Under the pieces are notes generated by a model. The model searched no databases. It was not told the DNA's origin and saw nothing but the letters and a program-made list of their open reading frames with translations. The position numbers and the translations under genes are program-made. Source: Eledone cirrhosa (Eukaryota). Taken from it: a stretch of DNA of 64,000 nucleotides. Positions 12,851 through 64,000 of the stretch are shown here, piece after piece. How positions within the stretch are numbered: position 1 is the first letter of the stretch; the number at the start of each line of letters is the position of its first letter. Location: contig OZ024759.1 of the NCBI GenBank assembly GCA_964016885.1, positions 34,906,001 to 34,970,000 on the forward strand, given 5' to 3'.

Positions 12851-13088
12851 GATCAAGTTTATCCCGGGTTCAATCGGGGGTAACCACAGTAAGTAAGGTA
12901 CTCAATACATAGCAGAGTATAAATATTTAATATAGTAAGGATTCTACAGGACTAGAACTGTTTCATTCGGGAGAAATCACCAGGAAGCTGACTGTTCAAG
13001 TAATTACCTACTTGGACAGTCGGCTTCCTGATGATTTCTCCCGAATGAAACAGTTCTAGTCCTGTAGAAGCCTTACTATATTAAATAT
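12851..13088. mobile_element. Fold-back hammerhead element, family E (Penelope-like terminus), next to (TA)n; other fragments at ~43691-43797 and ~50203-50330
   Basis: ~80-bp arms 12923-13002/13009-13088 plus an unpaired tail 12851-12922; the minus-strand core is mutated (CTGGTGA). Confidence 0.8.
13022..13072 (+). ncRNA. Type I hammerhead ribozyme, family E
   Basis: ggcttc-CTGATGA(13028-34)-tttctcccgaat-GAAA(13047-50)-cag-ttctagtc-ctg-TA^gaagcc; stem I 6 bp, GUA cleavage triplet. Confidence 0.85.
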
Positions 13089-16000
13089 AGAATAAGGAGC
13101 AGATATTGCAATAGCCTGGGTTTCAAAGGCCCTCAAATCTTCAACCAGTTGCCAAGAGAGACCTACATGGTGTGGATGTGGATGTTTTCAAGAAACATTT
13201 CAACATCCTGTTATACAGGATCCCCGACGAGCACACAGCACATTACAACGGTAAACTAAGGGCAGCAGCAACGAACTCCCTCTTGCACCAATGGCCAGCC
13301 AACACAGGGTGGAGATATAATGTGTAGCAGCAAGGGCGGTGCCCCAGCATGGCCTCAGCCGGATGGCTAGAACAGGTAAAAGGGTAAAAAAGTAAAATAG
13401 TATATATGTATGTATATATATATATATATATATATATATATGTGTGTGTGTGTGTGTGTGAATATATAAACGTATGTATGTATATTCATATGTGTGTATA
13501 TATATATATATATGTGTATGAATATATAAACGTATGTATGTATATTCATACGTGTGTATATATATATGTGTGTGTGTGTGTGAATATATAAACGTATGTA
13601 TGTATATTCATACGTGTGTGTATATATATATATATATCAGTATAAGTTGGACACTGAATGTCTGTCTGTATAGGGATACGTATACTTCTTCATTTAATAT
13701 ATGTGTGTGTATATATATATATATGTGTGTGTGTGTGTGTTAAGTATTTCCGAAGAAAAAGCAAAGGAAAGAAGAGTGCTCTATGTATAGAACAGAGCTA
13801 TTTAATTAGAAAGGGAACAACACAACATATAACTACTCCATTACCAAAGGTTTCTGGATCACAGACAATAATAACATATGTCTAGTTCTCTCATCAGTTA
13901 TATATTGTGTTGTTCACTTTCTAATTAAATATATATATGAGAAAATGAGGGCTTTTTCATTAAAACAAGCGAGATGTCCTACACGGGTGAAAGTATAAGG
14001 AAAAGAAATCGAAAATGTAGCTGGAGTCGTTTTAAGAATATTTATTTATTTCCTTTATCGGTTTCACAGTTCTTATGCTTTGCAAAAGTAGAATTGAGAT
14101 GGAGGGTTTGTGGTTTGTCTTGCCAAAACATACGTACGTACATACATACATACATACATACATTCATTCATTCATTCATTCATTCATTCATTCATGATGA
14201 CTGCCCCCTCGTTATGGCCATTGCACGATATACCATTATTAATAGTTATTAATAATAATATACCATTATTAATAGTTATTAATTAATTCTATTGTGCAAT
14301 GCCTGTGCGTGAAGATATTTTTTTAAGTGAGGAAAGACTGTGCACTGAGCCAATCCCACTCTCTGAGCGACAGTAGCTATAACCCGAAAAGAAGAAAAGA
14401 TCATCATCATCGGTAACTACTGAGCCGTAGGTTTTATATCGGAGTTATCCCAGATTCCTGAGTTGCCTTCTCCTAGAAGTATGCCCTGACAAAAACTAGG
14501 GGTCCTTCACTCCCAGTGGTTTAACCGGGCGGTACATGTCTATATACATATTTACACACTTTTGGATGGCCGTTGACTCTTATGAGTTCTTCCGCCCTTT
14601 GTCAGGTTTTGTTTTTTGACCTGCGGGGTGTCCAAAATCACCCTCCTCACCAAGTAAACTTGGTGGGGTTGCCGGTTTAGTCGCCGATGACCCGACCATG
14701 CGACAGATTGTACTGGGTTACATGTTACCAGTAGTACTCAAGAGTGACCCGACATACATGCATACATACATACATACATACATACATACATATATAGGTA
14801 TAAATATAAAATAGATCAGAAAGGCAGGAAGCCGGATGGCTACTGTAACTGCTTTACGCATGCGTGGTTTAGTCAGTTCGGCCATTTCGGGAAGAACACA
14901 TCGTTACTTGATTTGTCTTCAACAATTTGAAATATGTTGAAATATATTGGGGAAAACATCACCTTGTTTTGTTTATCAACCTTTACCCTTATTTATATAT
15001 ATATATATATATACATATATATATATATATATATATACATACATATATGCTGCATTTTACCGGCTTTTTAGAACTTAGTCATTTATTACATATCACATAC
15101 ATATATATATAACGAAGGGACTGTAGTAAGGAACCAGGTGAACCATAACGCACCAGAGTCCTCGATACTTTGGGTAGTAGAGTGGGTAATAGGAATCCAG
15201 AAATAGCCGTCGAAACGACTTGAGCTCTGTCGTCAGGGTCCTGAACCTTTTTCATGTATATATATATTCATATATGAGTGAGGTTGTCCGTTCGATTCCC
15301 AGACCGGGTGATGCGTTATGTCCTTGAGCAAGACACTTTATTTCACGTTGCTTCTTCTACCTGGAGTTGCGACCGATAGATAGTATTAGCAATTGGAAAG
15401 ACCAATGGAAACATTGTTTCCTCGGTCCGATTTGACGAAAGTCGATCGACTTTCGATATATATCTATATTTTGCAGTGGTTGACTGAAGAAAAAGGTATG
15501 TTCGTTTTTCCGTTGTCCTGTCGCTTCCTTTTTTTTCCTTATCCATAACGTGTGAGCCATGCGGTCATTTTTAATACTGTTATTATACAAAACATATAAA
15601 TAAATTTACGGTAGAATAACATAACTAATATGTTTTAAATATATACATAAATAACATTACAAATGCTTAGATAACATTATAAATTGCTCGCGATTCTTTC
15701 AGAAAGATATATTCTTTTAATGTTGCAATATTAAAGAAAATGTAAAGGAAGGGGTGAACAACGGAGCCAACACCAAAGCAAAGACAGCAACGTCGCGAGG
15801 AGTACCTCAATCTCTCTAATGATTTCTGAGGCAAGCCAGCACACTCGCAGCGTTGCCTCGGGTGATGGCGAGGCTAATGCGCTGGAACAAAAAACAAAAC
15901 AAAATAAAATGCGTTCCCCAACACAGCATAAGTATGGCCCCACCCCAGTAGAAATCCCATTAGACCTTCATACCACACGTAACTTAACTAAAAATATAGC

Positions 16001-16436
16001 TAACAATGTTTCAAAACCAACGCATCTAAAGCTGAGTCCGAGGCCCACGGTTGTACGAATGCACTGCGTAATTGTCCAGATAGGAACGCTTGACTACTCA
16101 ACAAAACATTCTTATCGAACGACGCCAAGTACGAATGTGATATCCCAAACAACTCAACGAAATTTTATATATATAAATGAATAATATATATATATATATA
16201 TATATATAAAAGAACTGGATTCGCAATCGCGAGGTTGTCAGTTCGATTCCCAGACCGGGTGATGCGTTATGTCCTTGAGCAAGACACTTTATTTCACGTT
16301 GCTTCTTCTACCTGGAGTTGCGACCGATAGATAGTATTAGCGATTGGAAAGACCAATGGAAACACTGTTTCCTCGGTCCGATTTGACGAAAGTCTATCGA
16401 CAATATATATATATATGTGTGTGTGTGTACATATAC

Positions 16437-16593
16437 ACGAGGTTCCGACTAGAAAGTTCATAGGCTGACTATAAAGGAGTGATGCTAGAGCTGTGAAATC
16501 TTGCATGGATTATTTTCAACTCTTATTAATAAGTGCGTTGTTTCTTTCCAGGGACTATGTTGGTCAACCTATAAGCCTTGCATACGACCCTCG
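16437..16593. mobile_element. Mariner-derived MITE; inverted relative at ~22358-22552
   Basis: CGAGG...AAAGTTCATAGGCTGAC termini and ...CCCTCG; shared interior between the two loci. Confidence 0.65.
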
Positions 16594-17107
16594 TGTTTAG
16601 AACGTGTGTTTGTTTAGTTTAAATGTTTAGAATTAGCGTTAATAGTCATTTACTTAAATATTTTGGGATATATTTTGGTGGTTAGCGAATTGAATTTGCA
16701 ATCGTGACGTTGCGAGTTCGATTCTCGGACCGGGCGATGCGTTTTCCATTTTGTTCTTTCTGCCAAGATTTGCGACCGGTAAATAGTATCAGCAATGGAA
16801 AGACCGATGGAAACATTGTTTCCTCGGCCTGATTTGATGAGTTCCACTTCACTCGGTAAGCGAATGAGGTCTGAGATCTTGTCGATCGATTCGATTCACT
16901 GAAAGATTCATCGATCTTTTAATCAATGAAGTGTGTATACATTTTGGGGGGACACCCTGTGTGTGTGTGTGTGTGTTTATATATATATATGTATGTGTAC
17001 ATATGTGTATGTATATATATGTATATATATATACATATGTATGTGTACATATATATATATATGTGTGTATATATATATATATATATACATATGTATAATT
17101 ATATATA

Positions 17108-62505: not shown

Positions 62506-63146
62506 GTTCAACTCCCCTTGAAACACACCAAGGAAAATAAACTAAAACTAAACTAATTAGTTAAGAATTGAAAGTTTAACGAACCTCCTGCCTACAAAGA
62601 GTCTTAGATAATTTAGATTAGATTAAATTGATTAAACTGTTGACATTGTAATGTAATGAGTTTATGATTAATGCATTTATTCTGTTCCTTGGTTTATTAA
62701 AGTTTTTAAAAAAAAGATCAAGTCTGATGTGAACTGAGATTGTTGTTTGTTTTTGATTTTTTTGGGGTTGTTGTTGATGTTGTTGATGATGTGTTGTGGT
62801 GATGGTGGTTGTTCTCTGCAGTTCTGAGTTCAAATCCAACCGAAGTCAACTTTGCCTTTCATCCATTCAAGGTCGATATAAAAAAATATCAGTAAAGTAC
62901 TAGGTTATATCTCTTTCAGTCCCTGGAGAGGAGATGGGCTCTGCCAGGGTTTCATTTAAATGGATTTTCCCACAGACCCGCCCTCCCTCCCTCCCATTCA
63001 CATTCCCACTATAATTACTTTCCCCAACCCCTTCCCACTACAATTACTTCCCCTCCTGACCCCTTCTCACTACAATTATTCTCCTCCCATATTGTGATAT
63101 ATACACAGTGAGAAGAACAATTTGTAACAGAAAAGTATATATATAT

Positions 63147-63451
63147 GTTAGGTAATTCCAAAGGAAAAAAGAGTGCTCTATGTATAGAACAGAACTATTT
63201 AATTAGATAGTGAACAACACAAAATATAACTACTCCATTACCAAAGGTTTCTGGATTACAGACAATAATATACGTCTAGATCGGTCGTCAGAGATGTTAT
63301 GGATATAGATATGATTTTAAATCTCATTTCATATCTTTTATCCATAACATCTCTGTCTGACGATCGATCCAGACGTATATTATTATTGTCTGGGATCCAG
63401 AAACCTTTGGTAATGGAGTAGTTATATGTTGTGTTGTTCACTTTCTAATTA
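63147..63451. mobile_element. Fold-back hammerhead element, family D (plus core CTGACGA 63357-63, GAAA 63400-03, GUA^ at 63412); fragments at ~13742-13931, 41857-41915, 42720-42800
   Basis: Inverted arms ~63201-63315/63327-63450, unpaired tail, (TA)n flanks; stem I ctctgt/atggag. Confidence 0.82.
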
Positions 63452-63495
63452 TATATATATATATATATATATATATATATATGTGTGTGTGTGTC

Positions 63496-64000
63496 TGATG
63501 GTAGCTATGATGCTTCCATAGGCGGTATGCCGGTGGAGCACTCTATGCTCCTACGGAGCAGAGTATGATAGAATGGAAAACGAAAGATCAGTGATGCATC
63601 TGAACTCAATTTATTGTGTGTTACAATTGTTTCTCCGGCAGACAGTTCGAGACGCGATCATTGTATGGATCTGTCAGATCCGCACAATGATCGCGACAGC
63701 TTGAGACGCGATCATTGTATGGATCTGTCAGATCCGCACAATGATCGCGACAGCTTGAGACGCGATCATTGTATGGATCTGTCAGATCCATACAATGATC
63801 GCGACAGCTTGAGACGCGATCATTGTATGGATCTGTCAGATCCGCACAATGATCGCGACAGCTTGAGACGCGATCATTGTATGGATCTGTCAGATCCGCA
63901 CAATGATCGCGACAGCTTGAGACGCGATCATTGTATGGATCTGTCAGATCCGCACAATGATCGCGTCTCAAGCTGTCTGCCGGAGAAATAATTGTAACAC
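63496..64000. mobile_element. Family H fold-back element with six tandem 54-bp palindromic units (63641-63964); runs off the window end
   Basis: Outer arms gtgttacaattgtttctccggcagacag (63618-) / ctgtctgccggagaaataattgtaacac (-64000) contain the GAAA-caattg-TA half core; tail homologous to 36670-36720. Confidence 0.8.

Follow-up and report, generated by a model that had tools for sequence, protein, structure and literature searches.

Penelope-like elements (PLEs) of the Hydra clade, as set out in the consulted sections of Craig et al. 2021 (PMC8557442), carry hammerhead ribozymes in their pseudo-long terminal repeats (pLTRs) and target (TA)n. They encode, within one open reading frame (ORF), a reverse transcriptase (RT) with RWK-like and DKT motifs, a CxCx5C linker and, at the C terminus, a GIY-YIG endonuclease (EN) with CxxC and CxH motifs. 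They occur there as partial tandems and as copies with an inverted, 5′-truncated partner and a tail at one end. Here we analyse a window of 64,000 nt from Eledone cirrhosa (OZ024759.1:34,906,001-34,970,000, in a genome of 3.0 Gb and 1,796 contigs) that is crowded with short hammerhead-bearing fold-backs; for several of their families, parent elements share these traits. With a probability of roughly 85%, the pieces represent dead ends of insertion by many Penelope-like families, for the most part of the Hydra clade, made by inverted insertion from two sites.

The swarm is not a new system: the ribozyme in the pLTR, the (TA)n targeting and the inverted truncated copies have all been published for the Hydra clade (PMC8557442, same sections). 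Its families, lettered A to J in a preliminary description of the window, are new. Hydra-1_Obim of Octopus bimaculoides, listed with a hammerhead in File S1/S2 of that paper, is by eye a related but distinct family, with another hammerhead and protein. Compared with the clade as presented there, the units in Eledone are longer (3.7-3.9 kb with 3′ untranslated regions (UTRs) of 0.9-2 kb, against mostly <3 kb), the tails measure ~65-140 nt instead of 30-40 nt, and RWK reads RWT (B) or RWR (I). There are also many families, tens of thousands of cores and ORF-less partners.

Three other systems are close. The minimal or dimeric PLE hammerheads of Cervera and De la Pena 2014 (PMC4209133, in part) share type I cores and a short palindromic helix III, the latter a hallmark of dimer-acting hammerheads; Schistosoma hammerhead pairs lying 100-700 bp apart on opposite strands are read there as truncated PLEs. 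Helices I and II are longer in Eledone (≤8 and ~11 bp, respectively), AU-rich and unrecognised by Rfam models. PAc, a Poseidon element of Anolis (Frangieh et al. 2024, PMC11167929), belongs to another clade; in vitro it uses two internal RT starts that bound a tail, cuts both DNA strands and inserts at AT-rich targets, features that are seen or proposed here as well. Its starts lie inside the ORF, in an AC-rich stem-loop, whereas those proposed here are upstream of it, with a covarying bulged hairpin after each, and a single insertion would use one of them at either end. Finally, the non-LTR retrozymes (Cervera and De la Pena 2020, PMC7229834, in part) resemble family F, and perhaps E, in being non-coding, in carrying a type I hammerhead and in their presumed mobilisation by PLEs. 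They are 170-400-nt tandem monomers expressed as circles. F units measure 2.7-3.1 kb and show PLE-like truncation, inversion and tail.

The window is AT-rich. A strict scan finds six hammerhead motifs in it and none in 30 local dinucleotide shuffles; a relaxed one finds ten (four in B, two each in C and D, one each in F and I), against a mean of 0.02 and a maximum of 1 in 50 shuffles. Applied to the clustering sample, 0.97 Mb of genomic loci plus the window, the relaxed scan gives 340 motifs in 20 clusters, across which the cores keep their pairing. The exact core pattern of the B/C/I group has 57,221 matches in the genome and its reversed control none; because eight of them fall in the window, it is about six-fold richer than the genome average. 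The Rfam models do not recognise these motifs: no hammerhead is called for family B or among the best 150 of 215 matches to the window, and the best hit of family E is Hammerhead_3 with an E value of 1.1. The Rfam miRNA matches in the window are artefacts of hairpins and TA repeats.

Complete type I hammerheads had been announced for seven families. In B, C, D, E, F and I, each with at least one such window copy, the cores are real as type I sequence and pairing motifs, and ribozyme activity is predicted for them. Family H is ruled out as a hammerhead: in the window copy (36745) and three others (4/4), CUGAGGA is followed by GAAU or CGAU instead of GAAA, and stem I is missing. The other CUGANGA...GAAA cores lie where they had been placed, but several are mutated, in stem I (43272 on the plus strand, 26216 on the minus strand) or helix III (25762, minus), or lack GAAA (26302, plus). 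The predicted cleavage sites, after 21472, 13066 and 63412 (plus strand), had been placed correctly. The reported covariation is present as well: the base of stem II is A-U in B1 and G-C in B3, a stem I G.U pair is replaced by A-U, and the stem II loops of C1 and C3 differ.

The structures depart from the textbook form in several ways. Helix II of family E has only 3 bp and a U.U pair and fails the relaxed scan, yet the RNA still folds into helices I, II and III; in D, E, F and I, helix II has a non-standard pair at its base. Of the families described as half or degenerate, A is a hammerhead remnant without helix II, G has a mutated core in the window, and the probable "J" consists of the family I tail folded back on itself. 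In 15 of the 20 motif clusters the whole of helix III is self-complementary, although the scan required only its first pair. In isolation it is unable to fold in B, C, D, F and I, where self-duplexes are possible, while that of E folds alone. Since a self-complementary 6-9-mer such as this helix III is unable to fold on its own, the hammerhead most likely acts as a dimer on tandem transcripts. RNA read through a fold-back is predicted to be 85-99% paired, which would mask the ribozyme. At least ten further hammerhead families occur in the flanks of the sampled loci (among them L029:2438-2488, L056:962-1012, L024:6989-7053, L011:1288-1356, and in L059, L087, L116 and L140).

In the window itself, where no PLE ORF had been noted, tblastn with Hydra-type RT and EN gives no match. 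Elsewhere in the genome, the adjacency to RT and GIY-YIG ORFs that the preliminary description proposed to look for is found for B, C and I, which bears out its view of the pieces as termini of Penelope-like elements of many lineages, with type I hammerheads, in (TA)n. The B, C and I pieces are 3′ pLTR ends of autonomous RT + GIY-YIG elements, lying 0.9-2.0 kb downstream of such ORFs in other copies. For B, an uninterrupted 821-codon ORF stands beside or between B pLTRs in all six loci picked from the EN match list, with tandem units of 3.66-3.93 kb, and a B pLTR is matched within 1.5 kb in 30/30 EN-selected loci. The top 150 matches of the B EN search are 99-100% identical, out of 61,075 first-look candidates; throughout, this term denotes preliminary match counts, not verified copies. 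Among nine long C loci, three (L124, L127 and L128) have an EN ORF ~2.0 kb upstream of a C pLTR on the same strand, one (L126) has an EN piece in an inverted junction, and five have no linked EN. Family I has RT and/or EN in 3/3 loci. Family G is the 3′ end of a canonical-type PLE, with EN, hammerhead and G tail in series in locus L222.

The master unit begins with a pLTR, in which hammerhead, short end point, tail and long end point follow one another, and continues with a single RT + GIY-YIG ORF, a 3′ UTR and a second pLTR; such units stand in head-to-tail tandems. In most genomic copies the final few hundred bases are all that is left, flanked by (TA)n runs and often accompanied by an inverted second copy. 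Summed contig depth over the B unit (three runs, kind unrecorded), which is not a copy number, falls from ~1e6 at the pLTR to 3e3-1e4 at the 5′ end of the ORF; it carries no information about expression, cleavage ends or circles. The run from a second organism covers 17 of 30 bins with 11 contigs and does not count here as evidence for the range of the element. Further divergent Hydra-type EN domains, 25-70% identical to that of B, occur in flanks (L116, L099, L141, L126, L180 and L091), as do canonical-type PLE ORFs (L134, L177 and L103); elements are often inserted in each other's TA runs.

Judged by motifs and by-eye comparison, the B, C and I elements belong to the Hydra clade on the features tested, length excepted. 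The protein alignment contains RWT/RWR, DKT, CxCx5C, CxxC and CxH. At the N-terminal RWK position, B has RRLRWT and I has RRIRWR; homologues read RWK, RWR or RWE, so that R-W is kept and K varies. DKG is replaced by DKT in the string SDKTNNLY of both B and I, which is identical in Hydra-1_Obim. The linker reads CNCRIKNKC in B, CNCRNRPDC in C and CNCRDRSKC in I. The EN has CNLC or CDLC and CLH or CRH; CCHH is absent, as judged within our own alignment, which holds no CCHH reference. A single RT and C-terminal GIY-YIG ORF flanked by pLTRs is found for B and I, and for C the EN is seen. Neighbours in the Atlas carry HTH_animal and GIY-YIG domains. Only in length do the units differ from the generally <3 kb published, owing in B (3.66-3.93 kb) to the long 3′ UTR and a linker insertion.

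The suggestion of non-autonomous, retrozyme-like elements mobilised in trans fails for B, C and I, which are linked to coding ORFs. Non-autonomy is supported for F, a young ORF-less family: its copies are 99% identical, an exact 26-mer has 3,199 matches in the genome, and 5/5 pLTR-to-pLTR units (2.7-3.1 kb) show no RT or EN match. F has the same truncation and inversion pattern as the other families. Family E is likely a non-autonomous element of ~550 nt: 6/6 long copies begin at (TA)n ~550 nt from the 3′ end (1631 first-look candidates), and no master was found in 30 + 6 loci. Alternatively, E may derive from a master that has a microsatellite inside it. Non-autonomy is possible for A, D and H. 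PLE ORFs near copies of D, E, A and H are separate insertions or unlinked; one D locus (L141) has a degraded Hydra ORF upstream, interrupted. First-look candidates number 842 for A and 2,371 for H (loci L063-L092 and L228-L231). In both of these families the hammerhead is degenerate and the tail hairpin is nevertheless kept, which suggests that the ribozyme is dispensable for spread.

The window holds ~31 pieces by self-BLAST and reading, in line with the estimate of roughly 30. Of 44 element ends placed by hand, 36 have a (TA)4+ run within 10 nt, compared to 8.5% of background positions. In the genomic loci, (TA)4+ follows 291 of the 393 arm ends. Downstream of the cleavage site, every family shows two fixed end points, for example ~+45 and ~+132 for B, +51 and +142 for I, and ~+60 and ~+198 for F; the tails of B, C, E, F, A and I are ~65-140 nt long. 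Out of 130 divergent arm pairs, 114 join a long to a short arm, 16 are long/long and none is short/short, in a sample that selects against short/short pairs through DNA queries carrying the long tail, and whose pairs are partly non-independent as some loci overlap. In B loci selected by EN instead, 10 of 12 pairs are long/short, and in the two exceptions one end is without a following TA and is probably an internal pLTR. The centres of the fold-backs differ between copies (B1 and B2 in the window, and other loci), with arms of ~160 nt to 7 kb. As these centres vary from copy to copy, each hairpin would be a separate 5′ truncation plus inversion, made at insertion.

A bulged hairpin with the consensus RCUC-[Y..R stem]-NN-GAGY-RC follows the arm end points by 2-9 nt. 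In B, I and F copies that continue into the next unit, it is found at that distance after both end points; in C, E, A and D it follows the short one, and the H tail has it too. It is present at 17 of 19 sites tried, including four clusters not used for its definition, and missed in the window B3 copy (GAG changed to GTG) and in a single-copy cluster of L180. Of these 17, 16 keep the outer pair (AU 10, GC 6) and all 17 keep the pair above the bulge (CG 10, UA 7), with all four combinations present; the upper stem has G.U pairs, the bulge is fixed at 2 nt and the loop ranges from 3 to 50 nt. Shuffled 200-nt tiles match in 20 of 5,090 cases, but shuffle p-values are not usable as probabilities because the families are related.

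The hairpin is absent downstream of three other hammerhead clusters (0/13, 0/12 and 0/2), possibly of other clades, and from the canonical-type G (1/15, that one coming from an adjacent A element). It is visible by eye in the published Hydra-2_Amil (coral) and Hydra-1_Ajap (sea cucumber), and missing from most final ends, which adjoin (TA)n. From its position and covariation, it may be an RT-initiation signal. The library searches and paper sections consulted here contain no account of the hairpin, of the long/short rule or of multi-kilobase ORF-less Hydra partners; subscription journals, Repbase and Dfam, along with supplementary figures (PMC8557442, PMC11167929) and the PMC13282606 repeat library, lie outside that scope and may describe them.

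We propose that the GIY-YIG domain would cut both strands of a (TA)n run and that each 3′-OH would prime internal reverse transcription on the element RNA, one at the short and the other at the long end point. The priming sites would each lie just 5′ of a bulged hairpin, probably bound by the RT. Both cDNAs would stop early and be joined at their truncated ends, giving an asymmetric fold-back. The hammerhead would most likely cut tandem transcripts as a dimer, and be buried in a long double helix when a fold-back is transcribed through. ORF-less families (F, likely E, possibly A, D and H) would borrow the enzyme. More tentatively, and at slightly under even odds in our estimate, Hydra-clade RNAs would carry a duplicated, clade-wide hairpin signal that sets the two RT starts, a protein dimer would use one per cut strand, and F-like parasites would keep only the signal and the hammerhead. 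PAc, another PLE, offers an in vitro precedent, in that it starts RT at two internal sites and cuts both DNA strands (PMC11167929).

Several points weigh against the account of the pieces as dead-end PLE insertions. In the same study, insertion in vitro did not require the PAc hammerhead, and RT began in an AC-rich stem-loop unlike the present hairpin. GIY-YIG is detected on the B ORF with a Pfam E value of only 0.007, neither the B nor the I ORF is assigned to an RT family by Pfam, and a PDB sequence search returns no match for them; the RT call rests on motifs, 37 homologues (30-39% identity), Atlas neighbours and by-eye comparison with published Hydra proteins. Masters were not found for D (0/11 loci cleanly linked), A (30 loci) or H (4 loci). 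Moreover, the junctions of A and H are nearly fixed, unlike what random truncation would produce: most of 30 A loci share nearly the same fold-back point, and H matches over nearly its whole 223 nt in 40/40 scored matches.

This last regularity, together with the five ORF-less F units and the common start of the six long E copies, would suit fold-backs that are themselves mobile, as short retrozyme-like units copied whole, possibly via circular RNA, by a PLE enzyme in trans; that retrozymes derive from PLE pLTRs has been proposed (10.64898/2026.07.22.740005, consulted in part). For B, C and I, the linkage to ORFs already refutes it as a general account. Elsewhere it has to face the varying centres and arm lengths, F units of several kilobases that are truncated and inverted like the rest, the heavily paired read-through RNA and the lack of the tandem retrozyme-like arrays that had been suggested as a check: no 170-400-nt array is seen for the window families (for A, D, E and H, in the loci read), where tandem units are 2.7-3.9 kb, and the retrozyme trait of being non-coding is found in F but not in B, C or I. 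We consider it quite improbable. Outside the window families, locus L032:4900-9901 has a 468-469-bp tandem array, 99.9% identical, with a compact hammerhead in each unit (12 motifs, 2 loci); it resembles a true retrozyme or satellite array and is without the RCUC/GAGY hairpin.

The motif itself, with the insertion model otherwise unchanged, could act in DNA as an endonuclease recognition or resolution site. Its conserved CTC, GAG and RC could suit a DNA-binding protein, and the tail of the D. virilis Penelope is needed for EN recognition (as cited in PMC11167929). Compensatory changes in two pairs, G.U pairs, the fixed bulge and the variable loop fit a folded single strand better, and the motif is missing from most final ends next to (TA)n; for the role of the motif only, we hold the DNA site to be unlikely, though worth keeping in mind. 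Least probable by far, to the point of being negligible, are DNA transposons of the miniature inverted-repeat type (MITEs) with long terminal inverted repeats, TA target duplications and an incidental hammerhead likeness. The long inverted arms and TA flanks would agree with them, but the outer ends are asymmetric, copies are often single-armed, core pairing is kept across 20 clusters, and the same sequence is the pLTR of RT-encoding tandems, a linkage that refutes this reading for B, C and I.

Inverted insertion of PLEs from two sites, if correct, bears on matters that PMC8557442, in the sections consulted, names as unresolved, namely the choice of internal start sites and inverted insertion, to which the covarying hairpin and the long/short rule both speak. 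If true, the hairpin model would account for the "tail" and the inverted structure of PLEs, and would specify a compact RNA cassette that directs insertion to (TA)n. Eledone also adds scale and signs of activity: one subgroup has at least 57,221 intact cores, many intact ORFs are near-identical, and there are young dependants that lack an ORF, against the single octopus Hydra family in that paper's consulted sections. The word "ribozyme" is absent from the main text of the octopus repeat paper PMC13282606, and short fold-backs could be misfiled as MITEs or short interspersed nuclear elements. More speculatively, dense near-perfect intronic hairpins are potential double-stranded RNA substrates.

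Within the window, family B is represented by three fold-backs. B1 (21060-21515) has its long arm on the minus strand (hammerhead 21182-21256) and its short arm on the plus strand (21408-21482). B2 (25576-25996) has a centre unlike that of B1 and an intact hammerhead on the plus strand (25894-25968). B3 (42961-43380), ~80% identical to B1, keeps an intact minus-strand hammerhead (43087-43160). Family C comprises the 3′ end C1 on the minus strand (24331-24597; hammerhead 24469-24538, hairpin 24391-24417), the fold-back C2 (26037-26396), with a single mutation in each of its two cores, and the fold-back C3 (42062-42463; intact minus-strand hammerhead 42206-42276, hairpin 42125-42153). The I short arm (49442-49585, plus) has a hammerhead at 49475-49544, and the probable "J" fold-back lies at 51557-51687. 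The G fold-back (49771-50180), its core reading TAGAAGA, is without an RCUC/GAGY hairpin.

The E fold-back at 12851-13088 joins a long-tail minus arm with mutated core (12851-13002) to a short plus arm with a hammerhead at 13022-13072; the bulged hairpin at 12897-12918 (minus) sits just past the end point of the E short arm. A truncated E copy lies at 50204-50328 (plus). The F 3′ end (20484-20745, minus; hammerhead 20672-20741, hairpin ~20556-20618, long tail) is the end of a young ORF-less element. Family D has a long-tailed copy with degenerate core at 13755-13931 (minus; hairpin 13775-13798) and a fold-back at 63150-63449 (plus-strand hammerhead 63347-63422); a tail of a further D-related family, its hairpin (42748-42769) bearing a deletion, occupies 42720-42822 (minus). 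A composite at 43691-44356 contains an E tail (43691-43790), a B3 tail (44014-44140) and a D short arm with a plus-strand hammerhead (44257-44330).

Family A fold-backs lie at 15084-15253 (a remnant lacking helix II), 21542-21738 (hairpin 21587-21613, minus), 23340-23535 and 46251-46642, the last with an A-related short arm. An A-related element occurs at 48607-48849 and a further A piece at 52186-52266. The cluster at 41176-42050 contains A pieces (41176-41315 and 41991-42050) and a D piece (41857-41922). H (36658-36880), 223 nt and TA-flanked between ferritin-like exons, has CUGANGA on the plus strand and a tail arm and core arm that do not overlap. An H-related long arm at 63500-64000 (hairpin 63537-63564, minus) runs into a 54-bp tandem and inverted array (63618-64000) made of family-H sequence, apparently by repeated fold-back copying.

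Besides these elements, the window contains two tandem ferritin-like genes, at 31627-37862 and 47690-62509, with Pfam Ferritin exons near 35323 and 60452; H, I, G, J and several A ends are located between their exons. Some 300 nt upstream of a ferritin start codon, at 47370-47400, is a stem with a CAGUGA loop, which we take to resemble an iron-responsive element; Rfam gave no call for it. A TA-flanked family with short terminal inverted repeats, MITE-like and distinct from the PLE ends, occurs at 16920-17210, 18450-18557, 49316-49399 and 50352-50430. RT fragments of long interspersed nuclear elements (LINEs) lie at 19023-19912, 26413-26940 and 28040-29216, two of them detected as RVT_1. Beside one such fragment, a stretch at 18880-19010 (minus) with CUGAUGA and GGAA-TATATA-ATAAAA is possibly a decayed hammerhead.

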